Origin: Candidatus Aminicenantes bacterium
GTDB lineage: Bacteria; Acidobacteriota; Aminicenantia; Aminicenantales; Aminicenantaceae
Assembly: GCA_030669305.1 (NCBI GenBank)
Contig: DAOVDU010000001.1
Coordinates: forward strand, 14,812 to 78,811
DNA: 64,000 bases
Reading direction: 5' to 3'
The notes beneath the pieces were generated by a model, which ran no database searches, was not told where the DNA came from, and saw only the letters and a program-made list of their open reading frames with translations. The position numbers were made by a program, and so were the translations under genes. Of the stretch, positions 769 through 51,545 are shown one piece after another; position 1 is the stretch's first letter; every line of letters begins with the position of its first letter.

Positions 769-1068
769 ATGGTAAGAAAAAAATATAACAAAAAAGAAAT
801 TGCCATCGGGATATCCTGCATAATAACTGTCATTTTGATTCTAAGCTTTTACATCTGGCACCAGACAGAATCTATCAATTTAGGGTATAGAACGGGAGAA
901 CTGGAGGAAGAAGTTCTTAATCTAAAGAAAGAAGTTGAAAAACTGGAAACAATAAAATCGTCCCTTCTTTCTCTTGATAAAGTTGAAAAAATCGCCAAAG
1001 ATGAGCTGAAAATGGATCCTGCAAAAGATGAACAGATTATTTACGAAAATTTCAATAATAATCCTTAA
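769..1068 (+). CDS. ftsL: cell division protein FtsL-like (single TM plus coiled coil)
   Basis: 99 aa with an N-terminal TM (IAIGISCIITVILILSFYIW) followed by a heptad-rich coiled coil. Positioned between rsmH and ftsI, with its ATG directly after the rsmH stop. Confidence 0.7.
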   Translation: MVRKKYNKKEIAIGISCIITVILILSFYIWHQTESINLGYRTGELEEEVLNLKKEVEKLETIKSSLLSLDKVEKIAKDELKMDPAKDEQIIYENFNNNP

Positions 1069-1079
1069 AAATAGATCCA

Positions 1080-5691: not shown

Positions 5692-5692
5692 C

Positions 5693-6781
5693 ATGCTTTA
5701 TTGGCTTTTGGTGCCCTTAAAAAAATACTCTATATTCTTCAATGTATTCGGTTATATCACGGTCAGAACAGCTCTTTCAGGAATAACTGCCTTGCTTATA
5801 TGCCTTATTTTGGGCCCATGGGTCATCAAACTGCTTAAAAAATACCAGATCAGAGAAGAGATCAGGCCTGAAGGTCCGGAATCTCATTTCGAAAAGAAAG
5901 GAACTCCATCTATGGGTGGAATTCTCATTATTGGAGCTACATTAATCCCAACTCTCCTCTGGGGAAACCTGAGCAACACCTATATTTGGCTTGCAATGAT
6001 CACCATGTTTTCCTTCGGGATCCTTGGCTTTTGGGATGATTTTTTGAAAATTAAAAAACGAAAATCTTTGGGGCTCATCATCCGCCATAAGCTAATTTTT
6101 CAGATTCTCCTTTCGGCAGCTATCGGGATTACCCTGGTTTATTTAGGCTTTAGAGGACAGTTTGATCTTCATCTGAGTCTGCCTTTTATTAAGAAATGGA
6201 TCCCCTATTTGGGCTGGTTCTATCTACCATGGATAATGTTTATCATCATCGGTTCTTCAAACTCCGTCAATCTCGCTGACGGCCTGGATGGACTAGCCAT
6301 TGGTCTCACGCTCATCAGTGTTAGCGCTTTTACTGCTCTCTCCTATTTCGCCGGACGCACTGACTGGTCTGGGTATTTAAACATTCCAAGGGTTCCTCAA
6401 GCTGCGGAGCTCACAATATTTGCTGGAGCCATGGCTGGAGCATGTTTGGGCTTTCTCTGGTATAACTGCCATCCAGCTCAACTCTTTATGGGAGATGTAG
6501 GAGCCTTATCTTTAGGCGGAACCATTGGGGCGATTTCCATAATGATAAAACAAGAATTTCTCCTTTTTATGGTAGCTGGAGTTTTTATCCTGGAAGCACT
6601 CTCTGTTCTGCTTCAAGTTTCCTACTTTAGACTGACAGGAGGAAAAAGAATTTTTAAGATGGCTCCTCTCCATCATCACTTCGAACTTATGGGATGGTCT
6701 GAGCAAAAAATTGTGGTTAGGTTCTGGATCGCCAGCATCATATTTGCCCTTTTCAGCCTCACCACCTTAAAACTGAGATAG
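5693..6781 (+). CDS. mraY: phospho-N-acetylmuramoyl-pentapeptide transferase MraY
   Basis: About 10 TM segments. Conserved MraY stretches (NSVNLADGLDGLA, HHHFEL). Synteny. Confidence 0.92.
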   Translation: MLYWLLVPLKKYSIFFNVFGYITVRTALSGITALLICLILGPWVIKLLKKYQIREEIRPEGPESHFEKKGTPSMGGILIIGATLIPTLLWGNLSNTYIWLAMITMFSFGILGFWDDFLKIKKRKSLGLIIRHKLIFQILLSAAIGITLVYLGFRGQFDLHLSLPFIKKWIPYLGWFYLPWIMFIIIGSSNSVNLADGLDGLAIGLTLISVSAFTALSYFAGRTDWSGYLNIPRVPQAAELTIFAGAMAGACLGFLWYNCHPAQLFMGDVGALSLGGTIGAISIMIKQEFLLFMVAGVFILEALSVLLQVSYFRLTGGKRIFKMAPLHHHFELMGWSEQKIVVRFWIASIIFALFSLTTLKLR

Positions 6782-6782
6782 A

Positions 6783-8150
6783 ATGAATTTAGAAGGAAAA
6801 AAAGTCCTTGTCGTTGGCCTGGGAAAAACTGGAGAAGCCCTCTGCAATTTTCTGCTCAGTCGAGGAGCTCGAGTGAAAGTCAGTGAAAAGAAAACCACTG
6901 AAGATTTGGGTCGAAAAATCCATTTCTGGTCCCAAAAAGGAGTTTTGGTTGAGGCAGGGAGACATGATAAAAAATCATTCCTCGAAGCAGATCTGATCAT
7001 ACCAAGCCCAGGAGTTCCTCCTCTCCCTGAACTCAAAGAGGCAAAAAAGCACGGAGTAAAAATTCTTTCAGAAGTCGAACTTGCATATAGATTCTTAAAA
7101 GGGGAAATCGTGGGCATAACAGGGTCTAACGGAAAATCCACTACAGCCGCACTAACCCATAAAATCCTTAAAGAAGGGGGGTTGGATAGTTATTTAGCAG
7201 GAAATATAGGGATACCTTTGATCAATTTTGTCGCTGGCAGCAGGGAGGATCATATCTATGTGACAGAGCTTTCAAGTTTTCAGCTTGAGTATATTGAACA
7301 ATTCCGAGCATCAGTATCAGTTTTTCTAAATATTTCTCCAGATCATCTCGACTGGCATAAGAGTTTTGATGATTATTATGAGGCGAAAAAGAAGCTTATA
7401 ACTTTTCAAAAAGAAAGCGACATAGCTATTCTTAATCAAGATGACCCTCTCGTCTGGGCATCTATAAAAGGAGTACAGTCTCAAATCTATTCATTTAGCC
7501 AAAAAAGTGAAATCTCCAGGGGATGTTATCTTCAAGGAGGCTGGATTTTTCTTTCGGAAAAAAAGGACGAAAGGCTGATGCACGTCTCTGAAATTCCTCT
7601 TCTTGGAGTACACAACCAGGAAAATGTTATGGCTGCTTCCCTGGTTGGGTCTATTTTTGGCATTCCCTTAACACGCATCAAAAAGTCAATCAAAAGCTTT
7701 AAAGGGCTTGAACATCGCCTGGAAAAAGTCTTAACACTGAAAGGAGTGGATTTTTATAATGATTCCAAAGCCACAAACATAGATTCAACTTTAAAATCAA
7801 TCCAGAGTTTTGACAAGAAAATCGTTCTTATCCTGGGAGGAAGAGACAAGCAAGGTGACTTTACAAAACTGAGGACGCCCATTAAAAAGAAGGTAAAAAA
7901 GATCATTCTTATTGGCGAAGCTAAAGAAAAAATTGAGCATGTTTTAAAGGGTTCTGTTCCGATGGAGAAAGGTTCATCTCTAGGAGATGCTGTGAGGATC
8001 AGCTATTCTACAGCTAAGCCTGGAGAAGTTGTGCTTCTTGCACCAGCCTGTACAAGCTTTGATATGTTTCGAAATTTTGAAGAAAGGGGTGAAGTCTTTA
8101 AGAAGGAAGTTTTTGCACTCAAAAAAAATATGGATAAAAAAAAGGCATAA
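6783..8150 (+). CDS. murD: UDP-MurNAc-L-Ala:D-Glu ligase MurD
   Basis: N-terminal Rossmann GLGKTG and Mur ligase P-loop GITGSNGKSTT. Synteny. Confidence 0.9.
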   Translation: MNLEGKKVLVVGLGKTGEALCNFLLSRGARVKVSEKKTTEDLGRKIHFWSQKGVLVEAGRHDKKSFLEADLIIPSPGVPPLPELKEAKKHGVKILSEVELAYRFLKGEIVGITGSNGKSTTAALTHKILKEGGLDSYLAGNIGIPLINFVAGSREDHIYVTELSSFQLEYIEQFRASVSVFLNISPDHLDWHKSFDDYYEAKKKLITFQKESDIAILNQDDPLVWASIKGVQSQIYSFSQKSEISRGCYLQGGWIFLSEKKDERLMHVSEIPLLGVHNQENVMAASLVGSIFGIPLTRIKKSIKSFKGLEHRLEKVLTLKGVDFYNDSKATNIDSTLKSIQSFDKKIVLILGGRDKQGDFTKLRTPIKKKVKKIILIGEAKEKIEHVLKGSVPMEKGSSLGDAVRISYSTAKPGEVVLLAPACTSFDMFRNFEERGEVFKKEVFALKKNMDKKKA

Positions 8151-8154
8151 AGAT

Positions 8155-9267
8155 ATGGAAGCTTTCAGACCTTACCGCTTTGATAAAACTCTTTTTCTTA
8201 CAACTCTTATCTTGATCTCCTTTGGACTAATCATGGTCTTTAGTTCATCAGCCATATTGTCAAGCGAAAAACATCATCAGCCCTTTCATTTTTTCATCAA
8301 TCAGATCATAGGAGTAGGAATTGGCATTATCTTCATTCTTTTAATACTTCCTTTGAGGACTCCGTTTTACCAAAACACTTCAGTAATCTATGGATTGCTT
8401 CTCCTGACACTCGTGCTGTTAACCTTGTGCCTTATCATGCCCTCTTATGGGAAAACAGGTCGTTGGGTTCATTTCCTTGGATTGCGCTTCCAGCCGACGG
8501 AACTAGCCAAAATCAGTTTAATTCTCTTTTTTTCCTCTTTTCTCGATCGTAAAAAAGATAAAATAAATGAAATTCAAAGCTTATTTTTCCCCTTAGCCAT
8601 CCTCTTTATTTTCATCATGTTGATTATCAAAGAGCCTGACTACGGCACTGCACTACTAATCTTATTCATCTGTACATTCATGCTTTTCATTGGCGGAGTA
8701 AAGCTTAGATACTTTTTCTATCTTGGAATCATTTCTATAGGTTTTTTCGCTTTTTATCTTTTTCAGGCAAGTTACAGGTTAGATAGAATTTTCGCATTTC
8801 TATCTCCTGCAAAAGATCCCTTAGGACGGGGGTTCCAGGTTATCCAGTCAAAATTAGCCGTGGGTTCAGGAGGTCTTCTGGGAGTCAGCATAGGAGAAAG
8901 CACACAGAAACTTTTCTTTCTTCCCTGTGCTCATACCGATTACATATACGCGATTGTAGGAGAAGAACTTGGCCTCATCGGCACTCTAGCCGTTCTCTTT
9001 CTCTTTATCATCTTCCTCTGGAGAGGATTGCTTATTTCCTGGAGAGCACCCAACCTTTTCAGCCAAATTGCAGCCGCAGGAATCACTTTAGCAATCTTTT
9101 CTCAAGCGATGCTGAACATAAGCGTAGTACTCGGATTGGGCCCCCCGACTGGCCTCCCACTTCCTTTATTTAGTTTCGGAAGATCTTCTCTTACCTGTAC
9201 TCTTTTCAGCATAGGCATTCTTCTCCATATTTCACAACGAAGAGGTTCTACAAGAAGTAAAAAATGA
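8155..9267 (+). CDS. ftsW: peptidoglycan glycosyltransferase FtsW (SEDS family)
   Basis: Polytopic membrane protein in the FtsW/RodA family (QPTELAKISLILFFSSFL..., PTGLPLPLFSFG). I chose the start at the ATG 4 nt after the murD stop (MEAFRPYRF...). The track ORF from 8029 would overlap murD by 120 nt. Confidence 0.85.
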   Translation: MEAFRPYRFDKTLFLTTLILISFGLIMVFSSSAILSSEKHHQPFHFFINQIIGVGIGIIFILLILPLRTPFYQNTSVIYGLLLLTLVLLTLCLIMPSYGKTGRWVHFLGLRFQPTELAKISLILFFSSFLDRKKDKINEIQSLFFPLAILFIFIMLIIKEPDYGTALLILFICTFMLFIGGVKLRYFFYLGIISIGFFAFYLFQASYRLDRIFAFLSPAKDPLGRGFQVIQSKLAVGSGGLLGVSIGESTQKLFFLPCAHTDYIYAIVGEELGLIGTLAVLFLFIIFLWRGLLISWRAPNLFSQIAAAGITLAIFSQAMLNISVVLGLGPPTGLPLPLFSFGRSSLTCTLFSIGILLHISQRRGSTRSKK

Positions 9268-10364
9268 ATCGCAAAAAAATAATCATAAGTGGAGGTGGTA
9301 CTGCAGGCCATCTCTACCCTGCTCTAGTTGTAGGACAGAAATTGAAGGAAAAAGATCCTGATATTTCTCTCACTTTTGTGGGGAGCAGTCGTGGTTTAGA
9401 AAAAAAACTAATGAAACATTATAAGGCAAATTTCATTACCTTAAAAATTGAAGGAATAAAAGGAAAAGGTTTAAAAATCTTCAAATCTCTTTTTATTCTT
9501 CCCTATTCTTTCGTCAAATCACTGGCAATCTTGCTGAGAACAAAACCTCAACTTGTTATCGGGGTGGGAGGGTACAGTTCAGGTCCAATCGTCCTCCTTG
9601 CCTCCTGGATGAAAACACCTACTTTGATTATGGAACAAAACATCTGTCCCGGATTCACGAACAGGCTTCTTCTGCCATGGGTGCAGAAAGCTGCTGTCTC
9701 TTTTGAAGGTTCCCTTTCTTATTTCAGAGGAAAAGGAATATTCACAGGAAATCCTGTGAGAGAGGAATTTTATTCCCTCCCTCCCAAAGAAAAAAATAGC
9801 AAGCTGACTCTCTTTATTTTTGGTGGAAGCCAAGGATCACATTTTTTAAACAAAGGAATTGTTCTCTCTCTTCCAGTTTTAAAAAAAGAAAGGGGAACTT
9901 TAAGAATCTTTCATCAGACAGGCAAAAAGGATTTTGAATGGGTTAAAGAGAGTTACATGCAAAACGGATTTGAAGATGTGATTGTCAGCCCTTTCTTTTT
10001 CGATATGGCAGAATATTTCAAAAGATCAGATCTAATCATCAGCCGGGCCGGAGCAACAACCATAGCAGAGCTGATCGCTGCGCAAAAAGCCTCGTTACTG
10101 GTTCCTTTTGCAAAGGCAACAGACAATCACCAGGTCTTGAATGCCCGAGAATTAGAAAAAATGAATGCAACTGAAGTTATCACAGAAGAAAAGTTTACAC
10201 CCGAGCTTTTCACCGGCAAAATATTCCGTTATATGAAAGACAAGGAAAAGATAAACCAAATGGAAAAAAACTTGGCCCCCCTCAAGAAAGAAAAGATTTC
10301 AGAAAATATCGCGGACCTCTGTTTCGAACTCATGAAAACAAAACGTCAGGAGAAAATAATTTGA
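9264..10364 (+). CDS. murG: UDP-GlcNAc:lipid I GlcNAc transferase MurG
   Basis: N-terminal GGGTAGHLYPAL motif and GT28 architecture. Synteny. Confidence 0.9.
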   Translation: MNRKKIIISGGGTAGHLYPALVVGQKLKEKDPDISLTFVGSSRGLEKKLMKHYKANFITLKIEGIKGKGLKIFKSLFILPYSFVKSLAILLRTKPQLVIGVGGYSSGPIVLLASWMKTPTLIMEQNICPGFTNRLLLPWVQKAAVSFEGSLSYFRGKGIFTGNPVREEFYSLPPKEKNSKLTLFIFGGSQGSHFLNKGIVLSLPVLKKERGTLRIFHQTGKKDFEWVKESYMQNGFEDVIVSPFFFDMAEYFKRSDLIISRAGATTIAELIAAQKASLLVPFAKATDNHQVLNARELEKMNATEVITEEKFTPELFTGKIFRYMKDKEKINQMEKNLAPLKKEKISENIADLCFELMKTKRQEKII

Positions 10365-11749
10365 GGAAACAAGCTTCCAAGAAGCTCAAACACATCCACA
10401 TGATAGGAATCGGTGGCACTGGCATGAATGGAATCGCAGAGGTTCTGTTCAATCTCGGTTACAAAGTCTCAGGGACAGATATCAACGAAAACGAAGCCAC
10501 GCAACGACTTGTCAGCCTTGGGGTAGAAATATCAATCGGTCACAAGGCCGAAAAAGTAGAGGGAGCAGATGTTGTCGTCATCTCCTCTGCTATCAAAGAA
10601 GATAATGTAGAAGTAGGAGAAGCAAGGCGGCAGAAAATACCAGTTATACCGAGGGCAGAAATGCTGGCAGAATTGATGAGAATGAAATACGGAATCGCCG
10701 TAGCAGGTTCTCACGGAAAGACATCTACTACTTCAATGATTGCACAAGTCCTTGAGGTAGCCGGGTTTGATCCAACAATCATCGTCGGCGGTCGATTAAA
10801 TACAATCGGTGCTCATGCAAAATTGGGCGAAGGAGATTTCATCGTAGCTGAAGCCGATGAAAGCGACCGATCCTTTCTATATCTATCTCCTTTTATTGCA
10901 GTGCTTACTAACCTTGATGAAGAGCATCTGGACCAGTATAAATCTTTGGATGAAATCAAAAAAACATTTGTCAATTTTGCAAATAAAGTTCCTTTTTACT
11001 GTCCAATCGTCCTGTGTCTCGACGACTCCAACCTCCAAAGTCTGGTTCCATCGCTAGAGAGAAGGATTATCACTTATGGATTTTCTGCTCAAGCCGACAT
11101 ATTTGCCAGAGGTCAGCAGTTTGAAAAATTCTCAAGCATTTCAACCCTTTATTGGAAGGGAAAAAAATTGGGAAATTTAAACCTAAACGTCCCCGGCATT
11201 CACAGCATATATAATGCCATGGCAGCAGTAGCTGTGGGCATGGACTTGGACATTCCTGTATCGAATATTTTCCAGGCTCTGGAAAATTACAGGGGGATCG
11301 GTCGCCGCTTTGAACTAAAGAAAAAAATAAACAACATTATGGTTATAGAAGACTATGCCCATCATCCAACAGAAATTAAAACTACTCTTGATGCAGCAAA
11401 GAAAGGATGGCCTCGAAGGATTATAGCAATTTTCCAACCCCATCGATACTCACGTCTTTCTCTTCTCATGAAAAAATTCGGCACAGCATTCAACGAGGCA
11501 GATATTCTCATCATCACAGAAGTTTACCCTGCAGGGGAGAACCCGATAGCAGGTGTATCAGGAAAAGCTCTCTATAAGGAAATTCTGCAATTCGGACATA
11601 AAAATATCTATTTTGAACAGGATCTAAAAAAAATACCTTCAATAGTAGGAAAACTTGCTTTGCAAAAAGATATGATCATTGTCATGGGAGCAGGAAATAT
11701 CTCCAGGGTAATTCCTGGTATCATCGAAAGACTGGGAAGGAAAAAATAA
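10361..11749 (+). CDS. murC: UDP-MurNAc:L-alanine ligase MurC
   Basis: GIGGTGMNGIA and GSHGKTSTTSM motifs. Synteny. Confidence 0.9.
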   Translation: MRKQASKKLKHIHMIGIGGTGMNGIAEVLFNLGYKVSGTDINENEATQRLVSLGVEISIGHKAEKVEGADVVVISSAIKEDNVEVGEARRQKIPVIPRAEMLAELMRMKYGIAVAGSHGKTSTTSMIAQVLEVAGFDPTIIVGGRLNTIGAHAKLGEGDFIVAEADESDRSFLYLSPFIAVLTNLDEEHLDQYKSLDEIKKTFVNFANKVPFYCPIVLCLDDSNLQSLVPSLERRIITYGFSAQADIFARGQQFEKFSSISTLYWKGKKLGNLNLNVPGIHSIYNAMAAVAVGMDLDIPVSNIFQALENYRGIGRRFELKKKINNIMVIEDYAHHPTEIKTTLDAAKKGWPRRIIAIFQPHRYSRLSLLMKKFGTAFNEADILIITEVYPAGENPIAGVSGKALYKEILQFGHKNIYFEQDLKKIPSIVGKLALQKDMIIVMGAGNISRVIPGIIERLGRKK

Positions 11750-11751
11750 GT

Positions 11752-12612
11752 ATGGCCACTAATCTTAATCCAGCTTTCAAATACAGATCTAACATTCTCC
11801 TCTCCCGGCCCACGCATTTCAGACGAGGAAACGGAAAAATAAAAACTAAAAAAATCCAGAGGAAAATGAGGCTGAAACTTAAACATATTCTTTTCGCCTT
11901 TTTTCTTCTGGGCGGAATATTTTATTCTATCCAGCAATTCTATCTCTTCTTAATCTCATGGGACAAACTGAACGTCAAAGAGATAGAAGTCGTCTGCCGC
12001 AGACAAGAAATCAAAGAAGAAATTCAACAAATTCTAAAAGGAGAAAAACTAGGAAATATTCTTCTTCTGAATATCGGGCATCTCCAAGAAGGGTTGACTA
12101 AGCATAGATGGATCAAAGAGGTCCTGGTAAGGAAAAACTTTCCTTCTTCCTTAAGGATTGAACTCATTGAAAGAACTCCTTATGCACTCCTGAAAAAGGA
12201 AAAATTATTCCTTATCGATGCAGATGGAGTTCAACTTGAACAAATTTATCCAAATGAAAAAATGAACCTCCCTCTTCTTGTAGATTCAAACAATTTCGAG
12301 AAAGATTATGAAGAAAAACTAAAATTAGCATGGGAATGCCTTGAGGGTTTAAAATCCTCAGAGAAAAAACAGATCGATCTTTTAGATTTATCTGATTACG
12401 AAAATGTATCAATAAGGCTGAAAGAATCACAAACATGGCTTATCCTCGGCAATGATCAATATGCAGAGAAACTTCGATTATTCCGACAGATCAGTGCCAA
12501 GTTAGAGAAACAAGGAGCTTTAGAATATGTCGATCTTCGCTTCGAAGACCGTTTATACATCAAACCTATTAAAAATTTAAACGGAAATACCTTCAAGAAG
12601 GAGGCTAACTGA
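11752..12612 (+). CDS. ftsQ: cell division protein FtsQ/DivIB (POTRA domain)
   Basis: Single N-terminal TM then a POTRA-like region. Located between murC and ftsA. Confidence 0.75.
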   Translation: MATNLNPAFKYRSNILLSRPTHFRRGNGKIKTKKIQRKMRLKLKHILFAFFLLGGIFYSIQQFYLFLISWDKLNVKEIEVVCRRQEIKEEIQQILKGEKLGNILLLNIGHLQEGLTKHRWIKEVLVRKNFPSSLRIELIERTPYALLKKEKLFLIDADGVQLEQIYPNEKMNLPLLVDSNNFEKDYEEKLKLAWECLEGLKSSEKKQIDLLDLSDYENVSIRLKESQTWLILGNDQYAEKLRLFRQISAKLEKQGALEYVDLRFEDRLYIKPIKNLNGNTFKKEAN

Positions 12613-13835
12613 TGCCTAAAAACGATTATATTGTAGGATTTGACATCGGGACAAAAAAAGTGGCCGCAATTATCGGCGAAATCACTGAAGAGAAAAAAAT
12701 TGAGATTATTGGCATAGGTACAGCCGACTCCAGAGGCCTGAGAAAAGGAGTCGTTGTCAATTTAGACGCTACTGTAGATGCCATTAAAAAGGCTCAAGAA
12801 GAAGCTGAGCTTATGGCTGGAGTAGAAATTGATTCAGCCTATATTGGCATTTCCGGTGCTCATATAAAAAGCTTCAACAGTAGAGGAGTTATTGCTGTTT
12901 CTGGCAGAAATAAGGAGGTTAACCGCGAAGACATCAAACGCGTAATAGACCAGTCTAAAGCTGTATCTATCCCCCCTGATAGAGAAATCATTCATATAAT
13001 TCCTCAGGAATTTGTTGTTGATGATCAAGACGGCATCAAAGATCCTCTCGGTATGAGCGGGATAAAGCTTGAAGTGAATGTTCACATTGTCACGGGCGCT
13101 ATAACCTCTGTCCAAAATTTAAGAACTTGTGTCTCTCGGGCAGGCATTGAGATCGAACAAATAGTTCTCAACCAGATCGCAACAAGCGCATCTATCCTTA
13201 CCCACGACGAAATGGAGCTCGGAGTTGGATTAATTGATATCGGAGGGGGGACAACTGAAGTAGCCATTTTCGAACGAGGAAGTCTATGGTACACATCCGT
13301 GATCCCGATAGGAGGAGATAATTTTACAAATGATATAGCTGTCGGCCTCCGGACTCCTATCCCGGATGCAGAAAAAATAAAGAAAAAATACGGCTGTGTG
13401 TCCGGCCCCCTCACAAATGAACAGGAAACCATAGAAGTCCCTACAGTCGGACGTGGGAAAAAGCCGCGTGTTCTCTCCAGACAGTTATTAGCTGATATTA
13501 TCCAGCCAAGAGCAGAAGAAATCTTTCGCTTGGTCGATAATGACATCAAAAGGATGGGATATGAAAAATCCCTCAATTCAGGGATAGTTCTTACTGGAGG
13601 GACAGCATTACTGGAAGGCCTGGAAGAAGTGGCTGAGGAAACTTTTGATTTGCCTGTAAGGCGTGGCGATCCCAGCGGCATCGGTGGCTTAGTGGATAGA
13701 GTCAGCACTCCTGACTACGCCGCTGGAGTCGGCCTCATCTTATATGGATTTATTCAGTGTAAAGGAAAGGGTATATCTAAAGACAGAAAACAGGGCTTCT
13801 TGTCAAAACTAAAAGATTGGATTAAAGAGACATAG
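12612..13835 (+). CDS. ftsA: cell division protein FtsA (actin-like ATPase)
   Basis: VGFDIGTKKV phosphate-1 and DIGGGTTEV phosphate-2 actin-fold motifs. Immediately upstream of ftsZ. Confidence 0.92.
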   Translation: MPKNDYIVGFDIGTKKVAAIIGEITEEKKIEIIGIGTADSRGLRKGVVVNLDATVDAIKKAQEEAELMAGVEIDSAYIGISGAHIKSFNSRGVIAVSGRNKEVNREDIKRVIDQSKAVSIPPDREIIHIIPQEFVVDDQDGIKDPLGMSGIKLEVNVHIVTGAITSVQNLRTCVSRAGIEIEQIVLNQIATSASILTHDEMELGVGLIDIGGGTTEVAIFERGSLWYTSVIPIGGDNFTNDIAVGLRTPIPDAEKIKKKYGCVSGPLTNEQETIEVPTVGRGKKPRVLSRQLLADIIQPRAEEIFRLVDNDIKRMGYEKSLNSGIVLTGGTALLEGLEEVAEETFDLPVRRGDPSGIGGLVDRVSTPDYAAGVGLILYGFIQCKGKGISKDRKQGFLSKLKDWIKET

Positions 13836-13844
13836 GAGGGAAAA

Positions 13845-15056
13845 ATGACTGAGCAAATAAAAAGCAACTTAAAATTTCATTTAGTCGAAGAGCACATTGG
13901 CGCTAAAATCAAGGTTATCGGCATTGGCGGCGGGGGGGGAAACGCTACTAACAGGATGATAGAGACACAAATTGGAGGAGTAGAATTTATCGCCGTCAAT
14001 ACAGACCTCCAAGCGCTCAATGCCAACAAATCTGGAACAAAAATCCAGATCGGCAGCCAATTGACAAAAGGATTGGGGTCAGGAGGTAGACCTGACATTG
14101 GGAAAGAAGCTGCCATGGAAGATACGGAAAAATTGATCAAGGTCCTTGAAGGAGCGGATATGGTCTTTCTGACTACTGGACTCGGAGGCGGCACAGGTAC
14201 AGGAGCAATACCGATTCTAGCGAATCTTGCCTCAGAAATGGATATTTTGGCCATTGCCATCGTTACTCTTCCCTTTGAATTCGAAGGAAAAATTAGAGCA
14301 AAGCAAGCTGAAGAAGGCCTGAGCGAATTGAAATCTGCTGTTGACACAGTTATTTCCATTCCAAATGAACGGCTGCTAGAGACAGTAAATCTGGACACTT
14401 CAATTCAAGATGCTTTCAAAATGGCTGACGATATTTTGCGTCAGGCAGTCCAGGGAATATCCGATCTCATCACCAGACCAGGACTGATCAATCTAGACTT
14501 TGCTGACGTCAAATCTATTATGAAAGGTATGGGCATGGCTTTCATGGGGACAGGAATTGCCTCAGGAGAAAACAGGGCAGTCGATGCCGCCCATAAAGCT
14601 ATCTCCAGTCCGCTCCTTATAGACACCTCAATAGAGGGAGCACACGGAGTTCTCATCAACATAACAGGAGGCAAAGACATCACTCTTCACGAAGTTTCAA
14701 AGGCTTCCGAGCTTATCCACAGTATGGCACATCCAGAGGCCAACATCATTTTTGGCACAGTCATCGACGAAAGCATGAAAGAAATGGTTAAAGTCACTGT
14801 CATCGCTACAGGTTTTGACTTATCGTCAGAAAGGGAATCAGCCACTCCTGAAGAATTTGGGCCCCCTCGTCGAGAAAGCCCCCCCCCATTCCTGGCTCCA
14901 CAAGAGACACCTCCTTATATATTCGAACCAAAAGGAAGAGAAACTCTCTGGCAAAGGCCTGCGTGGGAAAAACAATGGGAACCCTATGAAACACCCTCTT
15001 TTATAAGAAGAAACAAACACACATCACTGAGGAAGTTTCCTCATGAAGCCAGCTGA
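13845..15056 (+). CDS. ftsZ: cell division GTPase FtsZ
   Basis: Tubulin signature GGGTGTG. NAT and NTD stretches. Pro-rich linker and C-terminal IPSFIRRNK peptide resembling the FtsA/ZipA-binding tail. Confidence 0.95.
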
Positions 15057-18236: not shown

Positions 18237-19757
18237 TCAAAAATACTTATCCATCATTCGGTACTGGATAGCTTCGGAAATATGAACAGGGCTGATATTC
18301 TCTTCTCCATTTAAATCTGCAATCGTCCTGGCGACTTTTAAAACTCGAGTATAAGCTCTGGCACTGAACCCCAGCTTGTCGACAGCCATTTCTAAAAGTT
18401 CTTTTCCTTCGTCATCAACCTGACAGTACTTTTTAACCTCTTTTGTTCCCATTTGGGCATTACTGTATATTTTTCTCCCCTTGAACCTTTGAAGCTGCCT
18501 TTCCCGGGCATTGATAACTCTCTTTCTTATCTCAATTGAGCTCTCCCCTTCAAATTTGGAAATAATGTCCTTGAATTCTACCCTAGGCACGTCAACTTGA
18601 ATATCAATACGGTCGAGCAAAGGACCGGATACCTTCGAGTAATAACGGCCTCTCTGGGCGTCGGTACATTCAAAATCCGCTGAAGAAAGCCCGTAATAGG
18701 CATCTTCGCAGGGATTCATGGCAGCAACAAGCATAATGGAGGTAGGAAAAGTCACGGCCATAGAAGCGCGAGAAATAGTAACTTTTCTATCTTCCAAAGG
18801 CTGCCTTAAATCCTCAAGAACATGTTTTCGGAATTCAGGAAGTTCATCCAGAAACAATACTCCATTGTTAGCCAAGGAAACTTCTCCGGGTTTTGGAATA
18901 GTTCCTCCTCCTATTAAACCGGCATATGAAATTGTGTGATGAGGAGCTCGAAACGGTCTCTCACTGATAGCTCCTTTATCCTTTAATAATCCCGAAACGC
19001 TGTATATTTGGGTCGCTTCAATGATTTCCTCAAAAGTCATAGGCGGCAATATCGTAGGTAATCTTCTGGCCAGCATGGTTTTTCCTGCTCCAGGGGGACC
19101 GATTAAAAGGACATTATGGAAGCCTGCCGCTGCAACTTCCAGGGCTCGTTTGACATGCTGCTGCCCCTTAATTTCCTGAAAATCCAAATCACAGTCAGGC
19201 TGAGGCAGAAGTTCCTGTAAAGTACATATGCTAGGAGCTACAGATTCAGGGCAGTTAAGCAATTGTATAACCTGCACTAAATTTTCCAAGGCATAGATAT
19301 CCATATCCTGCACCAGTGCTGCTTCTTTTAAATTCTCCTTAGGAACAACAATTCCCTGAAAGCCCTTTTTTTTAGCAAGAACAGTGGAGGAAAGGATACC
19401 TTTTCCTGGCTTTAATTTCCCGTCCAAAGCCAATTCACCTAAAAATAAAAACTCGCGGAGTCTTTCTTCAGGAAACAAGTCTAAATGAGCTAGGAAACCT
19501 AGAGAGATAGGAAGATCAAAAGCTGAGCCTTCCTTTTTCCTATCTGCAGGAGCTAAATTGATGATGATTTTCCGTGAAGGAAATTTATATCCACAATTCT
19601 TCAGCGCCGCTCTCACTCTTTCTCTGCTTTCCCGCACTGAAGCATCAGGAAGTCCTACAATGACAAAACCAGGGAATCCAAAAGATATATCAACTTCAAC
19701 ATCAACAATATAGGCCTCGATTCCTATCAAAGAGGCACTGGCGATTTTAAAAAGCAT
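18237..19757 (-). CDS. comM: YifB/ComM family Mg-chelatase-like AAA+ ATPase
   Basis: N-terminal Lon-like domain (GIEAYIVDVEVDIS). Walker A GPPGAGKTM. C-terminal ComM helix-turn-helix region. Full-length homology to YifB. Confidence 0.85.
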   Translation of the reverse strand: MLFKIASASLIGIEAYIVDVEVDISFGFPGFVIVGLPDASVRESRERVRAALKNCGYKFPSRKIIINLAPADRKKEGSAFDLPISLGFLAHLDLFPEERLREFLFLGELALDGKLKPGKGILSSTVLAKKKGFQGIVVPKENLKEAALVQDMDIYALENLVQVIQLLNCPESVAPSICTLQELLPQPDCDLDFQEIKGQQHVKRALEVAAAGFHNVLLIGPPGAGKTMLARRLPTILPPMTFEEIIEATQIYSVSGLLKDKGAISERPFRAPHHTISYAGLIGGGTIPKPGEVSLANNGVLFLDELPEFRKHVLEDLRQPLEDRKVTISRASMAVTFPTSIMLVAAMNPCEDAYYGLSSADFECTDAQRGRYYSKVSGPLLDRIDIQVDVPRVEFKDIISKFEGESSIEIRKRVINARERQLQRFKGRKIYSNAQMGTKEVKKYCQVDDEGKELLEMAVDKLGFSARAYTRVLKVARTIADLNGEENISPVHISEAIQYRMMDKYF

Positions 19758-19851: not shown

Positions 19852-20655
19852 CTATTTTTTCGGGGATCCTGTAAAATCTTGAGCTAAACTATCTATCTCA
19901 TTCTCAATATCCCTCTGGGATTTGAATTTTACTTTTGTAATTTTAATAGGAGCAATTTTCTCTTTATATGCAAACTCTATTTCTTCTTTCTTTTCTTTTT
20001 TTTCTTCTTTTTTTATTTCTGGTTTTTCTCTTTCTTCCGGCTTTTCTTCCGGCTTTCTCTTTTCTCCAAAGATTTTTTCTCTCACTATAGGGACAGTTAA
20101 CTTTGCAATCTCTCTTAAAGACTCAAAAACTCCTACTCCATTAATGGCACTGGACTCAATATGGGGAAGCCCTCGTGGGTTTAGCAGATTATTAAAGGTT
20201 TCTACTGGAATGAGATTCTCTAAATCACGCTTGTTGTATTGGAAAACAAGAGGAACAAAATTTAAATCCACGTTTTGTTCAAGAAAATTTTTCCTCAAGC
20301 CATCAAAGTTCTCCAAATTTGCATCGACAAGAGGAATCTGAGAATCAGCAACAAAAATAACACCATCTGCTCCTTTAAGCACACTTTTTCTAGAGGCTTC
20401 ATAAAAAACCTGGCCTGGGACAGTCATGAGTTGAAAATGAATCTTGAAGTCTCGGATCATACCTGCTTTTATGGGTAACAAATCAAAAAAAATAGTCCTT
20501 TCTATATCCGTCTCAAGACAGATTAAATCACCCCGCGAATCCTCGTCCATTTTGCTGTAGATAAAGCGTAGGTTTGTTGTTTTGCCGCTTAGACCAGGCC
20601 CGTAATAAATAATTTTTATGGCCAAGTTTTTGGTCGTATAATTTATATATGCCAT
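19852..20655 (-). CDS. mglA: MglA-family Ras-like small GTPase with a ~70-aa Lys/Glu-rich C-terminal extension
   Basis: KIIYYGPGLSGKTTNLRFIY, TVPGQVFYEASRK and QYNKRDL align near-colinearly with Myxococcus MglA as I recall it. Tail EEKPEEREKPEIKKEEKKEKKEE. Confidence 0.8.
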   Translation of the reverse strand: MAYINYTTKNLAIKIIYYGPGLSGKTTNLRFIYSKMDEDSRGDLICLETDIERTIFFDLLPIKAGMIRDFKIHFQLMTVPGQVFYEASRKSVLKGADGVIFVADSQIPLVDANLENFDGLRKNFLEQNVDLNFVPLVFQYNKRDLENLIPVETFNNLLNPRGLPHIESSAINGVGVFESLREIAKLTVPIVREKIFGEKRKPEEKPEEREKPEIKKEEKKEKKEEIEFAYKEKIAPIKITKVKFKSQRDIENEIDSLAQDFTGSPKK

Positions 20656-20805
20656 CTGCCTCTAAATTCTCACATCACCTGAGACAATTCTTAACATAAT
20701 CCTTGAACAGAGTCAAATCTTTTCCTTTTTCCTTACTTTTGCTTTCTCTCATCTCCCATTTATGTGGAAGAATACAATTGAGTCCGTTTAGTCCATTTCA
20801 ATAAT

Positions 20806-21984
20806 TTAGTCGGTTTCGTCCATTAAATATCCAAAGAGGTGGGAATACTTTTCAACAACCCTGGACCAGGAATAATTTTCCTGGACATATTTCAGGCCAT
20901 TCTCTCCCATGATTCTTCTTAACTTTGAATCAGACAGGAAAAGATCCAAAACACTTTCAAACTCTTTATAATCGGAGTAGCACAAACCGCTTTTTCCCTC
21001 AAGACAATGCTGTTTGAGAGGGTCGGTTTTTTCTTGGACTAAAACAGGCGTCTGGGCTGCCATCGACTCTAAAGCTGCCATGCATAAGCTTTCAAGATGA
21101 GAAGGATGGACAGTCACACAGGCAGAAGCCATGGCACTATTTTTTTCCTCAGGAGGAAGAAAACCAAGATATTTTATTCTAGGATAAGAAGGTAAATCCA
21201 TTAAAAGCTTTCCGATCAGGATAAGTGTCAAATCAGGACTTTTTCTGCTGTATCTAAGGAAATAATCGACGAGTTCTTGACAGCCTTTTCCTGGTTCTAT
21301 ACGGCCTGCATAAAGGATAAAAGGAAGCATAATCCCATGTTTTTTACAAAAATCAGGACTCCCTAGGTTTTTTGGAATCTCTACTCCAACACCTACAATA
21401 TCCTGGTATTTGTGTTCAAAAGAAAACAGACGGCTGAGCATTTGCTTTTCTGATGCTGTATTAAACATGAAAGCTTTAGGAGTAGAAAATACCTCTTTCA
21501 TGATATCTAGGTGTAAAGCGGGCTCATCATGAGCTGTGGGAACAAGGGCTTTTTTTTCTTTAATTCTTTGGAGCCCCCAGTAAGTATTGTAATACAGGTA
21601 GGTAAAAAAGATGAAAATGTCGTGGTCTTTCTCTTCTCTCTCTAATGTTTCAACAAGAGCGGGACAACAAGGCCCTTGCCTTTCCATCCATTCTATCTCA
21701 TCTTCACGCGTATGTTCATGAAAGAAAATCCAATCAGAATACTTGTTAAACGAATCAATGTCTCTCTCTTTTTCCACTCTAAAGCGTTTAATAACAACTC
21801 CATTAAGAATAGACTCACCAGGAGAATACTCATTTTTCCATGTGATGTAATCTTTAGCTGCTGTTGTATAGACCGTACAGTCATATCCTGCGTCGACTAA
21901 TTTTTCTGCAATCTGGCGGCAGTGAAGCTCAGAACCTCCCATGACTTCGCTGCCATACCGCTGGACTACAAAGGCTATTCGCAT
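20806..21984 (-). CDS. GT4-family glycosyltransferase (type A; paralog of 24186..25361)
   Basis: N-terminal [23 protein letters not shown] Glyco_trans_4-like domain and C-terminal GT1 domain. About 45% identity by eye to the ORF at 24186. Confidence 0.75.
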
Positions 21985-22060
21985 ACTATCTCCAAATCTA
22001 AAGAATTCAAGAGTCAGAATCCAGAATCCTAAAAAATTTTTTAATTCTGTATTCTGAATT

Positions 22061-23122
22061 CTATATTCTATTAATCATTTGAAGCAAAAATTTCTCTCTT
22101 TCCATCTCCTTAAACTTCTTCAACCTTCGGCGCTGTCCTTCAATTATCCCTTCCCTCAACTTCATATCATTAGCCACAATATTGACCAGTTCTCCGACAT
22201 AATCCTTTCTCTTATTCTTGATCAACACACCTGCTCCTCCTAATGTATAGGGAACAGCTGTACAATCATAGGCAATAATGGGTAGGTCAAAAATCATACT
22301 CTCGATAAAAGGGAGCCCAAATCCCTCATGTTCACTTAACGAAAGAAACAAGTTTGAAGCTTTGTAAATGGCAAACATTTCCTCATCAGAAATATGTCCT
22401 GTAAAACAAATTTCCTCTGGCTTTAAATAAAACTCATCTGCGAGGGTAACTAAACTCTTGTAATATTTGGGAAGGGATGCGATTTTACCGACTATAATCA
22501 GCCTTACTAGGGGAGAGATATATTTTTTGTAGTAAAAAATAACCTTGATAAGATCATCAATCCTCTTATTGGGCGCAACCCTCCCCACAAAAAGAATATT
22601 GGTTCTATCATCTTTAAAGAGATTGTACATAAGACGACTCATTGGTTTTTTGTACTTTTTAAAATCAACAAAAAGAGGAAAAATTTTAGCTTTTTTAAAG
22701 CCAATATTAAGAAGTTCCTGGCGATTAAACTCGGAATCAGCTAAAGCTAATGCAACTTTAGGGGCCAGCGATACGAGTTCCTCCCTGCCAATTCGGGAAA
22801 TTCTGACCATTTCCTGGCTAAAATCCTTAAAAAATCCATGTGGTGTGAGGTTATGATATATCATCGTTTTTCCGCTGGGGAGGCTGGCAAAAGCATGGGT
22901 TAAAGGAGAGGGCAGAGCAAAATGTAAAATAGTAACATCCGAAGGAGAAGGCTTCGGGAAAGAAGAAAAAATTTTCGACTCTTCCTCCAGGCCTCTATCT
23001 CGTGTTAAACAGTATATCTCAGATTGAAAACCCTGAGATAAAAAAAATCTTTTCATATGAAAGGCTGTATCTCCTATGGCATCACCCCAATGAAACGCAG
23101 GAACAAGCTGGTCTACTCTCAT
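22061..23122 (-). CDS. GT4-family glycosyltransferase (type B; paralog of 23119..24186)
   Basis: EX7E-type motif [24 protein letters not shown] donor-binding region. Confidence 0.75.
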
Positions 23123-24186
23123 CCTATGCTCACCCGTTCTATATGATTGAGCAGGGTCCGGCCTACATTTTCCCTCTTGTATTTCTCCAGAGCCTTGAGC
23201 TGAGATGAAATCACATCTTTTCTGAAGGCTTCATCTCTGTTCAGTATATCCAATAGAACCGCTGTCTTGAAAAAATCTTTTTCACGAAGGAGGATTCCTC
23301 CGCTATTCATAGTCTCCTCCACCGCGCCAGCCGCATAGGCAACAACAGGAATTTTCATATAAAAAGACTCTAAAAGAGGAACTCCAAATCCTTCATGCTC
23401 ACTCATGCTCAAATAGACATGAGCAAGCCTGAAATATGCGATAAGTTCAGAAAATTCAACATGCCCTGTAAAATGAACATCATTCAATTCCAATCTTTCC
23501 ACTAAATCCCGGAGAACAGCAAAATACCGTTCCATCCCTCTAAAATCTCCGGCCAAAATGAGCTGAGAATTTGGATTGAAATATTTTTTATAGAAATAAA
23601 AGGTCTTAATAACATCCTCAAACTTTTTGTTAGGAATCATGCGTCCCACGAAAAGAATGGTCCATTTTCCATTGGAAAAAAGTTTCTGAACGACAGGGTC
23701 TCCTTCCTGGTCAAATTTTGAAAAATTCAAAAGAAGAGGCTGCACACCTGTATTGGTATATCCAAACACCTCAAGTTCTTTTCGGTTAAATTCTGAATCT
23801 CCGAGGGCCAAATCAACTTTATCTATAAAAAGCTTGATCTCCAGACGTCCTTTATAGCACTCCCTGGCCAGAATCCTGTGATAGTCCAAGAAAAACTCAT
23901 AGGGTGTGATATTGTGATAAATCATGATTCTCCTGTCTGGAATGCGAAAAAACATCTTGGATACAGGCGATCCGATGGAAAAATGAAATATGACCACATT
24001 TTGGGGAGAGCTAATTTTTTTATACTCCCTGTAATCTCTCATGTATTTGGCCATCTTTGGCTCATAGAACCGGATGAATATCTCAGATTTATATCCTTTT
24101 TCTTTGAGAACTTTTTGTATTTCAAGCATTTCATCGGAGATTGCATCCCCATAAGTCAAGGAAGTCGCAAATTGATGAATTTCCAC
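23119..24186 (-). CDS. GT4-family glycosyltransferase (type B')
   Basis: SEHEGFGVPLLESF and FVGRMIPNKK. 4-nt overlap with the downstream GT. Confidence 0.75.
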   Translation of the reverse strand: MEIHQFATSLTYGDAISDEMLEIQKVLKEKGYKSEIFIRFYEPKMAKYMRDYREYKKISSPQNVVIFHFSIGSPVSKMFFRIPDRRIMIYHNITPYEFFLDYHRILARECYKGRLEIKLFIDKVDLALGDSEFNRKELEVFGYTNTGVQPLLLNFSKFDQEGDPVVQKLFSNGKWTILFVGRMIPNKKFEDVIKTFYFYKKYFNPNSQLILAGDFRGMERYFAVLRDLVERLELNDVHFTGHVEFSELIAYFRLAHVYLSMSEHEGFGVPLLESFYMKIPVVAYAAGAVEETMNSGGILLREKDFFKTAVLLDILNRDEAFRKDVISSQLKALEKYKRENVGRTLLNHIERVSIG

Positions 24187-25361
24187 TATTTTTCCTTTTC
24201 AAGCTGGTCAAGGATTGAAAGATACTTATTCTCGATAACTTCCCATGTATAATTCTGTCTGAAGTACTCCTGGCCGTTTTTCCCCATCGCCTCACAAAGT
24301 CCAGGCGATGAGATGAGAAGCCCCAAGGCTTCTCTAAACTCTTCATAATTTTCATAGAAGAGACCAGCGTTGCTCCGCATACACTGTCCTTTTAGCACTT
24401 CGCATCGGGCATTAGCCAAGACTGGGATCCGCAAGGCCCAGGCTTCGAGAGTAACCATGGAAAGGCTTTCATAGAATGAGGGCATCATTAAAAGCAACGC
24501 CCCTTCAAGAGCAGAAAACTTATCTTCCTCTGATAAAAATCCAAGATAGGCTATATCAGAATGGGAAGGAATCTTCAATTTGTTGCTACCGACCAAGACC
24601 AGTTTTATATCAGAGCCAATTTCATCTTTAAACCTGAGAAAACAATCAAAAAGCTTATGGCATCCTTTGTTCTTATCAATCCTTCCTATATAGATAATGT
24701 AATCTCCTCCAATCTGGTATTTTCGGCGAAATCCTTCCGAGGAAAACTGTGAAGGGATCTCTGTTCCCACTCCAATAATATCCCCTAGTACATCCATATT
24801 CTGGGAGAGAGAATTTATCATATTCTTTTCTTCTACAGAATTGTAGATTATAGCGCGCGGCTTTCTGAATAAATCTTTGAAGATTTTAAGGTAAATTACA
24901 GGGTCATGCTCCGCTGTAGGTACCAGGATGCTCTTTTGGGGCAAAGAGTTTATTCCGCAGTACGAATGGTAATAGCGGTAGCTGAAAAAAATAAAATAAT
25001 CATAATCATTCTGGTGTTCATTTATGTACTTAATTAACGAAGGAGAGTAAGGGCCTTCTTCCTCCAGCCACTTCAGTTCGTCCTCGAGTCTATGCTCATT
25101 TTCCAGGATGTAATTCTGGATGCGGCCAAACCTCTTCGGGTCCCTTGTTCGAGTCACTGAAAACCTTTTTACAGGAATGCCGTTAATAACCTCTTCTCCC
25201 CTAGGATAATGATCTTTCCATGTGATATAGTCAAAAGCCTTTGTTGTTAACACCTCGACTTCAAAGTATTTCTTCATATGTTCGGCTACCCAGCGGCAGT
25301 GTAACTCTGCACCTCCGCTTATTTCTAAACCATATCTTTGGACGACAAAAGCTAATTTCAT
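24186..25361 (-). CDS. GT4-family glycosyltransferase (type A')
   Basis: [23 protein letters not shown]. Colinear with the ORF at 20806. Confidence 0.75.
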   Translation of the reverse strand: MKLAFVVQRYGLEISGGAELHCRWVAEHMKKYFEVEVLTTKAFDYITWKDHYPRGEEVINGIPVKRFSVTRTRDPKRFGRIQNYILENEHRLEDELKWLEEEGPYSPSLIKYINEHQNDYDYFIFFSYRYYHSYCGINSLPQKSILVPTAEHDPVIYLKIFKDLFRKPRAIIYNSVEEKNMINSLSQNMDVLGDIIGVGTEIPSQFSSEGFRRKYQIGGDYIIYIGRIDKNKGCHKLFDCFLRFKDEIGSDIKLVLVGSNKLKIPSHSDIAYLGFLSEEDKFSALEGALLLMMPSFYESLSMVTLEAWALRIPVLANARCEVLKGQCMRSNAGLFYENYEEFREALGLLISSPGLCEAMGKNGQEYFRQNYTWEVIENKYLSILDQLEKEK

Positions 25362-26041
25362 TTGAAAATCTCTTTCTCTATTGCTTTTTCTTTTCTTCCC
25401 AAAAACTCAAAATCTTTTTCCATGATTCGAATCTTAACCTTCAGGTTCTCCTGTTCGATCTTTAATTTGGTGAGTTCAACCACAATATTGTGAGAAAGAC
25501 TATGAAGAAGTTTAGTGTACTCCAAAGCTTTATTCAGGCCTTCGAAAGCAAGGTCTACTCTCTTGTTTGTTGCCTGATTGAGATGATCCAGTTTTTCATG
25601 AATTTTACCAAGCTCACCCTCCAGTTTTTCATTCAATAAATCCAATCTTCTGTTTGTCTGATCAAAATTGTTTTGTGTTTCCTGATGGACAGGGAATATC
25701 ATAACCTTAATAAGAGGGGAAAATGGCTTCATGACTCTCAGCAACAACTTCTTTACTTTTGCTTTTGTTCCAGAGGGTTCCTCGGGTCCAGCAGGAGACG
25801 GACCAAAAGAAGAGTAGAATGCCTCATTTTTTAGATCGCCTTCTGCCGCCTTTATTGGCTGTGTAGCAATTTTTCTTTTGATCTGATCCATAATATCAGC
25901 GACATCGATATTGTCGTAGTCTATGTTTATTTCTTCTTTTTTTATGAATTTCTTTTGTTCTTTTTTGTCTGTCATAAAATACTCCTCTATTTCTTTATTC
26001 TTCCTTTTTAAACAGAAAGTCTTCATAAACACTCTGGACAT
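25358..26041 (-). CDS. coiled-coil protein of unknown function (first genes of the GT operon)
   Basis: Open reading frame with a long heptad-rich C-terminal half (LDLLNEKLEGELGKIHEKLDHLN...). No enzymatic motifs. The start is uncertain, with alternative Mets at residues 6 and 23. Confidence 0.45.
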   Translation of the reverse strand: MSRVFMKTFCLKRKNKEIEEYFMTDKKEQKKFIKKEEINIDYDNIDVADIMDQIKRKIATQPIKAAEGDLKNEAFYSSFGPSPAGPEEPSGTKAKVKKLLLRVMKPFSPLIKVMIFPVHQETQNNFDQTNRRLDLLNEKLEGELGKIHEKLDHLNQATNKRVDLAFEGLNKALEYTKLLHSLSHNIVVELTKLKIEQENLKVKIRIMEKDFEFLGRKEKAIEKEIFK

Positions 26042-26243
26042 CCTGGATATCAGGAAGAGGATGAAGCTTCATCTCCTCGATTTCTTGTATCTCTTTTTCA
26101 GTAAAGATTCCTTCTTTCTTTTTCTTTGCGATTAATTCTTTAATCTCTTCCATAATCCTATCTTGATCTTCTTTCTTAATGCTCTTTATCTCTAAAAAAT
26201 CAGCCATTTTGTTCACCCTCTTGTTAGATTCGCGTACATTCAC
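25995..26243 (-). CDS. small acidic Lys/Glu-rich protein (82 aa), hypothetical
   Basis: ORF only. It overlaps the next gene by about 47 nt. Low-complexity charged sequence. Confidence 0.3.
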   Translation of the reverse strand: MNVRESNKRVNKMADFLEIKSIKKEDQDRIMEEIKELIAKKKKEGIFTEKEIQEIEEMKLHPLPDIQDVQSVYEDFLFKKEE

Positions 26244-49884: not shown

Positions 49885-49887
49885 ACA

Positions 49888-51544: not shown

Positions 51545-51545
51545 T

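Follow-up and report, generated by a model that had tools for sequence, protein, structure and literature searches.

MglA is a model for the bacterial Ras-like switch that sets cell polarity. To our knowledge, its regulation is known only via separate partners, namely MglB, RomR/RomX and RomY, in Myxococcus, Thermus and Bdellovibrio. What, then, should we make of an MglA with a long C-terminal tail and no mglB beside it? Such a gene lies in a 64,000-nucleotide stretch of DNA from a Candidatus Aminicenantes bacterium of the phylum Acidobacteriota (GenBank assembly GCA_030669305.1, contig DAOVDU010000001.1, positions 14,812 to 78,811), here called the window. A full-text literature search found no paper on MglA in Aminicenantes. 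A sequence-only reading of the window had described an MglA orthologue with a Lys/Glu-rich, low-complexity tail of about 70 residues and no adjacent MglB. We find that the tailed architecture is real and occurs in several classes of Acidobacteriota. We also find that low complexity describes only part of the tail, the last ~40 residues of which form a conserved, non-repetitive module. Judging from sequence, we consider it rather probable that the protein is a functional, nucleotide-cycling MglA with a tethered docking module. This judgement covers the general claim; the version in which the module binds a pocket on MglA is graded separately below.

The gene (19852..20655, minus strand) is a complete coding sequence of 267 amino acids (aa) plus stop codon with an ATG start, as given by the list of open reading frames (ORFs) and the sequence itself. 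Its first 189 residues match the first 189 of Myxococcus xanthus MglA (PDB 5ymx, 6h17 and 6hjh) in a gapless alignment, at E 5.5e-66 in a phmmer search of the PDB. Thermus thermophilus MglA (3t12) matches at E 2e-57, and the next-best solved family, Rab, follows only at E 3e-05. Pfam and NCBIfam return a weak generic Ras/small_GTP signal that covers the GTPase core only. Residue numbering is 1:1 with the M. xanthus protein. The P-loop reads G19-P-G21-L-S-G-K-T26, so that position 21 is Gly; R53 provides the intrinsic Arg finger; the G3 motif is T78-V-P-G-Q82, where Thr replaces the usual Asp and Q82 is the catalytic Gln; and the G4 motif is N141-K-R-D144. Eight of the core residues (G19, G21, T26, R53, T54, D58, T78 and Q82) are invariant in 147/147 sequences of an alignment that joins two clades. 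The core is thus a full group-1 MglA member with complete catalytic residues.

The predicted structure agrees with this assignment. We ran AlphaFold twice: with 121 close homologues, which gave a mean predicted local distance difference test score (pLDDT) of 51, and with the two-clade alignment of 147 sequences, which gave a good core. Foldseek superimposes the core model on MglA crystal structures with template modelling (TM) scores of 0.85-0.91 over only ~190 columns. All 14 of the best 14 matches are MglA, and identity to the M. xanthus and T. thermophilus proteins in these alignments is about 53%. From the PDB phmmer search, Foldseek and the invariant residues together we place the core at aa 1-196 (20068..20655, minus strand). 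It ends with helix alpha5 (aa 176-196), which contains R181 and K185. Position 181 is Lys or Arg in 93-100% of sequences and position 185 in 100%; I67 is kept in 89-100%. Because alpha5 runs to about residue 196, the tail comprises residues 197-267. The orthology, the tail length of about 70 residues and the quoted tail sequence of the sequence-only reading are therefore all correct.

The tail consists of two parts of very different character. Residues 197-225 (GEKRKPEEKPEEREKPEIKKEEKKEKKEE; 19981..20067, minus strand) form a polyampholyte linker, with 12 Lys/Arg and 12 Asp/Glu among 29 residues and a net charge of 0. Across the family the linker is 22-89 aa long and contains 26% Glu, 19% Lys and 10% Arg; in some relatives it is replaced by Pro/Ala-rich sequence. 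Its pLDDT of ~30-37 predicts disorder, which, with the varying length and composition, gives it the look of a tether. For this part the description as Lys/Glu-rich low complexity holds. It fails for residues 226-267 (IEFAYKEKIAPIKITKVKFKSQRDIENEIDSLAQDFTGSPKK; 19855..19980, minus strand), which column conservation and profile searches delimit as a module.

The module has the consensus I-E-F-x(7)-P-I-R-x-T-K-I-K-F-K-S-Q-x-D-I-E-x-E-L-E-K-L-A-K-E-F. In order, it has an EF motif, a segment in which hydrophobic and basic residues alternate, and an acidic amphipathic helix. Several columns hardly vary (F228 93%, K241 98%, K243 96%, E251 97%, L257 92%, F261 98%). The basic segment (aa 236-246, PIKITKVKFKS, net charge +4; 19918..19950, minus strand), delimited by its sequence pattern, is conserved as P-I-R-x-T-K-I-K-F-K-S across the family. 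Its alternating pattern suggests a strand, but we treat this assignment with caution because AlphaFold leaves the segment unstructured at low confidence (pLDDT <50 with the two-clade alignment). The terminal helix (aa 247-262, QRDIENEIDSLAQDFT; 19870..19917, minus strand) is modelled in both AlphaFold runs, with pLDDT ~50-57 in the two-clade run. It has a net charge of -4 and a hydrophobic moment of 0.55, and both clades retain its residues D249, E253, L254 and L257. No curated family covers the tail: Pfam and NCBIfam have no match over aa 197-267. A search of the PDB with the module profile gives nothing significant, the nearest entries being de novo strand-helix designs at E 0.3-0.7, and Foldseek alignments of the window model end at ~190 columns, leaving the tail without a match among solved structures.

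Is the tail truly part of the protein? A frameshift in an A-rich stretch could have produced a run-on past the true stop codon, or the tail could be a separate small gene. The linker DNA does contain A7-A8 homopolymer runs, and linker frameshifts are known from four other assemblies (L044, L054, L055 and L087). In the window, however, the reading frame is unbroken from the MglA core into the conserved module, and the stop near 20060 that the sequence-only reading had considered does not exist. Among the 120 best of 7,962 homologues the tail is in frame in 120/120. These independent proteins are 59-95% identical to the query, 254-323 aa long and cover 93-100% of it (nearly all 98-100%); homologues with fused core and tail come from JGI, NCBI, ENA and Logan assemblies. 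The module is also in frame with the core in about 50 of 80 species-representative genomes. A run-on is thereby ruled out. By our own estimate, 72 stop-free codons past the core would arise by chance at 39% guanine-cytosine content with a probability of about 0.008. Genuinely tail-less close relatives number only two, L057 and L058. The other objection, that relatives have a conserved small gene of its own at this place, is ruled out as well: short module 'proteins' in relatives start within the MglA core, as fragments at contig edges, apart from one copy split by a frameshift (L087) and two ORFs on very short contigs (L088 and L089, described below). Taken together, we give an artefact virtually no chance.

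The frame breaks themselves deserve a comment. In L044, L054 and L055, which are long-read 'MFD' bins, the module lies in a different frame from the core (at about 6560-6800). On the 1-kb contig L087 the core stops and the tail resumes 12 nucleotides later in another frame (L087:236-248). In other assemblies, frame breaks thus concentrate in the A-rich linker. We read these four cases as errors or pseudogenes of the fused gene, most likely homopolymer errors, and regard real phase variation as a less likely cause. Two further ORFs end in the module and have N-terminal parts unrelated to MglA (L088:526-765 and L089:193-561). Both are on contigs of at most 1.4 kb, and the one in L088 lies directly upstream of comM. 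Chimeric assembly, rearrangement or a rare standalone form of the module could account for them.

The module is an autonomous, portable unit. We searched 1.84 billion cluster representatives with a 44-position module profile. Only 25 proteins matched, and nearly all of them are fragments or full-length tailed MglA. The exception is P0138 (L005:682-1242), a protein of 186 aa in which a CheY-type receiver domain (PF00072, E 9e-27) is followed by a Lys/Glu linker and the module. Its gene sits between a gene for a pilus ATPase of the T2SSE family and the genes cheR and pilZ. P0146 has the same architecture. In a sister clade, P0158 and P0161 combine a receiver domain and a charged linker with a different acidic helix (EEEDINKEIRDIYTIM). 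An iterative search with a hidden Markov model (HMM) built from tails only recovered 56/82 tails and 0/1640 shuffled decoys. In deep Aminicenantes, two loci (L059:169-1476 and L060:6001-7308) encode the MglA core, linker, module and a GGDEF domain in one ORF; the module scores E ~1e-10 in the tail-only iterative search and the GGDEF domain E ~5e-34 with Pfam. A full-text literature search found no paper on an MglA-GGDEF fusion.

Outside Aminicenantes the tail is longer. MglA orthologues of Vicinamibacteria and Thermoanaerobaculia (L064-L086, for example L066:6001-7284 and L079:6001-7341) have extensions of 140-330 residues. These consist of a Pro/Ala-rich linker, a conserved block, a second linker and a C-terminal domain of ~70-100 residues. 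The block reads V-E-F-A-E-E-D-T-x-K-x-x-V-R-x-V-K-T-R-x-x-x-D-I-x-x-E-L-E-K-L-R. A direct comparison of the Aminicenantes module HMM with these tails gave no match at E <= 1e-3. Profile-profile alignment with hhalign places 32 columns of module and block in register with 94% probability and a score of 31.9, while 200 column-shuffled controls score 8.2 +/- 2.3 (maximum 15.8). Since the score exceeds that of the shuffled controls, we consider the module homologous to the long-tail block. In the joint alignment of 147 sequences from the two clades, F228, D249, E253 and L257 each reach 90% conservation or more. The module thus occurs in several acidobacterial classes, and the window protein is therefore a short version of the same extension.

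The long-tailed form is abundant in metagenomes, where the best 120 matches of a profile search are all 364-416 aa long. Neither Pfam nor phmmer with MglB finds a fused Roadblock domain in the long extensions. Their C-terminal domain has a beta-rich-looking sequence pattern (for example ...SFEVTVPKEALGRSRKATVTLRLQDGDG...LLLALKFNVHGK) and no Pfam match. Many 'binchicken' and SRP-derived metagenome-assembled genomes (L015-L017, L023-L026, L029, L030, L075 and L085) carry the acidobacterial-type gene under the title 'uncultured Eubacteriales/Clostridia bacterium'. This labelling seems mistaken, and the organism names in it should not serve to infer taxonomic distribution.

Does the tailed MglA have an MglB partner nearby? 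The negatives given here cover the 64-kb window and the flanks of related loci. None of 35 window ORFs, comprising all unassigned small and medium ORFs and the neighbouring genes, has a Pfam match to Robl_LC7. With M. xanthus MglB as a probe (tblastn, phmmer and jackhmmer), the best match in the window and in 86 related loci with 6-10 kb of flank reaches only E 0.77. Precomputed Pfam annotations of the mglA neighbours in L001-L004 include no Roadblock/LC7. We checked the probe against PDB 6h5b_B; it is full-length and without mismatch. A canonical MglB would probably have been detected, because the probe finds Thermus MglB at E 3e-17. The reported lack of an adjacent MglB is thus borne out. 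Missing adjacency alone is not new, since orphan MglA proteins are already documented. Coupling within four genes is typical (87%), not obligatory, and 59/449 MglA proteins (13%) have no coupled mglB (PMC4316618); Ca. Koribacter versatilis, also an acidobacterium, has MglA and RomR and no MglB (PMC3983030).

What could the module do? In the mechanism that we propose, the charge-balanced Lys/Glu linker would be a flexible tether only, because its length and composition drift freely between relatives. The ~40-residue module, with its Ile/Val-Glu-Phe motif, basic strand-like segment and acidic amphipathic helix, would be a portable protein-protein docking peptide. We infer this role, and the docking site with it. 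We read the module as a tethered docking motif because in this protein a disordered tether of drifting sequence links a folded switch domain to a conserved terminal peptide, and the peptide recurs on other domains.

Myxococcus suggests where such a peptide could bind. The C-terminal (Ct) helix of M. xanthus MglB is acidic and lies on a disordered extension. It binds a pocket to which alpha5 contributes K181/K185 and the beta2-beta3 loop L64/I67, and it stimulates nucleotide exchange. RomR has a Glu-rich C-terminal helix that can take its place, and the basic alpha5 residues of MglA co-vary with the presence of acidic helices (PMC6785124). RomR consists of a receiver domain, a lineage-specific unstructured linker and the acidic helical RomR-C, which alone targets the poles (PMC3441718). 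The module may supply in cis what Myxococcus provides in trans by these linker-borne acidic helices. The Myxococcus helices dock on the alpha5/beta2-beta3 allosteric pocket, on a polar landmark or on both, and so set the place and the nucleotide state of MglA action. In the version that we prefer, if only tentatively and by analogy, the module helix would bind the allosteric pocket of MglA, either its own or that of another molecule, and a module on a RomR-like receiver protein would compete for the same pocket. A wider picture is that Acidobacteriota have a class of MglA with its own ligand: the module would occupy the alpha5/beta2-beta3 pocket in cis, polarity would be set without a linked MglB, the receiver-borne module would compete for that pocket and thereby couple chemosensory input to the switch, and in deep Aminicenantes the GGDEF fusion would couple the GTPase state to cyclic di-GMP (c-di-GMP) synthesis. 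We regard this picture as unlikely in its entirety.

How far do the likenesses to known systems carry? The window protein shares core, P-loop G21, R53, T78xxGQ82, NKxD and fold with group-1 MglA of M. xanthus and T. thermophilus (5ymx, 6h17, 3t12). Canonical MglA, however, is a single-domain protein with PDB chains of 190-203 residues, usually encoded beside mglB, whereas the window protein has 267 residues, a conserved extension of ~70 residues and no linked mglB. The reference survey also treats MglA as single-domain (PMC4316618). Like the MglB Ct-helix, the tail helix is short, acidic and amphipathic and terminates a flexible extension, and the pocket residues K181/K185 and I67 are conserved in tailed MglA. 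The two differ in that the helix is attached to a Roadblock domain in M. xanthus and to MglA here, where a basic segment and an EF motif precede it; Pfam and NCBIfam find no Roadblock domain in the window protein.

RomR is laid out likewise, with a folded signalling domain, a lineage-specific linker and an acidic helical C-terminus, an architecture that P0138 and P0146 reproduce literally (receiver, linker, acidic-helix module). The likeness of the window protein to RomR is one of layout only: its folded domain is a GTPase instead of a receiver, and there is no evidence of homology. Orphan MglA proteins, such as Bdellovibrio MglA, SofG and Ca. Koribacter versatilis MglA, likewise have no coupled mglB, and Koribacter is from the same phylum. 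In Bdellovibrio MglA position 21 is Ser, and the protein is presumed GTP-locked; tailed MglA keeps Gly21. The extensions of SofG differ in sequence. Finally, FtsZ has a GTPase core, a variable disordered linker and a short conserved C-terminal peptide that binds FtsA/ZipA. It resembles tailed MglA in design only; fold, peptide and biology are unrelated.

Several observations weigh against our reading, above all against docking on MglA itself. AlphaFold with the two-clade alignment left the module undocked on the core; at the low confidence of helix and strand segment given above, binding in cis gains no structural support. The basic alpha5 residues are no hallmark of tailed proteins, since the tail-less L057 and L058 retain them. 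The tail helix and the MglB Ct-helix are alike in character, both acidic and amphipathic, with no demonstrable homology, and a pure Ct-helix mimic leaves the basic strand-like segment unexplained. The module alignment contains no Trp, whereas RomR-C, compared by its published description only, has an invariant Trp and Pro (PMC3441718). The receiver-module proteins number two or three in total, all from short contigs. Unlinked mglB, romR or romX genes elsewhere in the genome would lie outside the stretches that we searched.

Which other explanations fit? The closest is a sub-case of the docking explanation that competes with pocket binding: the module may act in trans, making no contact with MglA, and bind a separate landmark or machine, such as a hub at the pole, a part of the type IV pilus or a cytoskeletal filament. 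The binding would resemble that of the conserved C-terminal FtsZ peptide to FtsA/ZipA across a disordered linker, and it would anchor MglA where it acts. A core, a variable disordered linker and a conserved terminal peptide are the classic layout for partner binding, and a common external target would suit a module found in three contexts (on MglA, on a receiver, and between MglA and GGDEF). Pilus and chemosensory genes surround the receiver-module gene, and PilM, PilN, PilO, a likely PilP and a putative pilQ are encoded in the window. RomR-C is a determinant of pole targeting (PMC3441718), and AlphaFold does not place the module on the core. On the other hand, no candidate partner has emerged. 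The conserved neighbours, comM and genes for glycosyltransferases of family 4 (GT4), have no known link to MglA, and the basic alpha5 pocket residues are left unexplained, though another ligand could use them. The evidence fits an external partner nearly as well as it fits the pocket, and an external partner is possible in our judgement, short of an even chance.

We are far more sceptical of two readings in which nothing is docked in this way. In one, the tail would be a built-in substitute for the GTPase-activating protein (GAP), folding onto the switch regions, stimulating GTP hydrolysis and replacing MglB. Neither the window nor the surroundings of the orthologue in 80+ genomes yielded an mglB, and some activator would be expected because G21, R53 and Q82, which an MglB-type GAP repositions, are all kept. 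Yet MglB works as a Roadblock dimer and stabilises an extensive switch/beta2 interface (PMC6785124), and by Pfam and PDB profile search a 40-aa peptide is unlike it. Unlinked GAPs are common, as the 13% of orphan MglA proteins illustrate, and AlphaFold lends no structural support; we think a substitute GAP very improbable. In the other, the whole tail would be inert, a disordered 'entropic bristle' or solubility tag that binds nothing specifically. The linker is indeed a polyampholyte of drifting sequence, and AlphaFold confidence is low over the entire tail. However, module positions are 92-98% conserved although the sequences are only ~70% identical overall, and the module is recognisable between classes with ~45% full-length identity, which would be unexpected for a bristle. 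An inert tail is scarcely credible to us.

Four genes for GT4-family glycosyltransferases (20806..25361, minus strand; Pfam Glycos_transf_1 for the nearest gene) lie upstream of mglA. Downstream follows comM/yifB, an Mg-chelatase-like AAA+ gene (18237..19757, minus strand; Pfam Mg_chelatase, E 1e-90). A few genes on is the ftsQ-ftsA-ftsZ end of the dcw cell-wall/division cluster, which occupies positions 1-15056 of the window (plus strand) and ends about 5 kb from mglA. The order GT4-mglA-comM-dcw is conserved in Aminicenantes. In 36 related loci comM is the next gene downstream of mglA, and the comM cluster spans 41 loci, four of them outside the Aminicenantes type. This linkage may reflect co-function, for example in pilus-dependent DNA uptake, or mere synteny. 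The four-gene GT4 arrangement is found in L001, L003 and about 28-30 Aminicenantes loci. In high-GC classes, where picking genes by longest ORF is unreliable, we drew no conclusions about neighbours. The type IV pilus cluster (48805-53906, plus strand), with the order pilM-pilN-pilO-pilP-pilQ-like, is about 28 kb from mglA. PilM, PilN and PilO are identified by Pfam; PilP is likely, its match being below the Pfam cut-off, and pilQ is putative, by position only.

Some smaller features surround the gene. The 150-bp gap upstream of the mglA start codon contains a promoter-like site, TTGACT-18-AAGAAT (20687..20716, minus strand). It comes from a consensus scan only, which returned 6 sites in the region against 2.9 +/- 1.7 expected, and is weak evidence for a promoter of mglA. 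The GT4 genes encode proteins of 392, 353, 355 and 391 aa in an A-B-B'-A' pattern, and the outer pair start alike. Upstream of the GT4 cluster (25358-26243, minus strand) are two overlapping Lys/Glu-rich ORFs of 227 and 82 aa without a Pfam match. L001 and L003 have small ORFs without a Pfam match at the same position.

For annotation, the consequence is that the tail falls outside every Pfam and NCBIfam model. Pipelines name tailed MglA variously 'SRP receptor subunit beta', 'GTPase SAR1 family', 'MglA' or 'hypothetical'.

Nothing here overturns the current understanding of how MglA controls polarity. An environmentally abundant phylum nevertheless keeps a different design, in which a catalytically intact MglA is fused to a conserved peptide. 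In some variants a beta-rich-looking domain or a GGDEF cyclase is added, and a receiver encoded among pilus and chemosensory genes carries the peptide too. The MglA-GGDEF fusion would couple a Ras-like switch directly to c-di-GMP synthesis. If the peptide binds the allosteric pocket, then tailed MglA would be a naturally occurring cis form of the mechanism known from the MglB and RomR helices, and a compact model for small-GTPase allostery. If it binds another target, then it would point to a new polarity landmark in Acidobacteriota.

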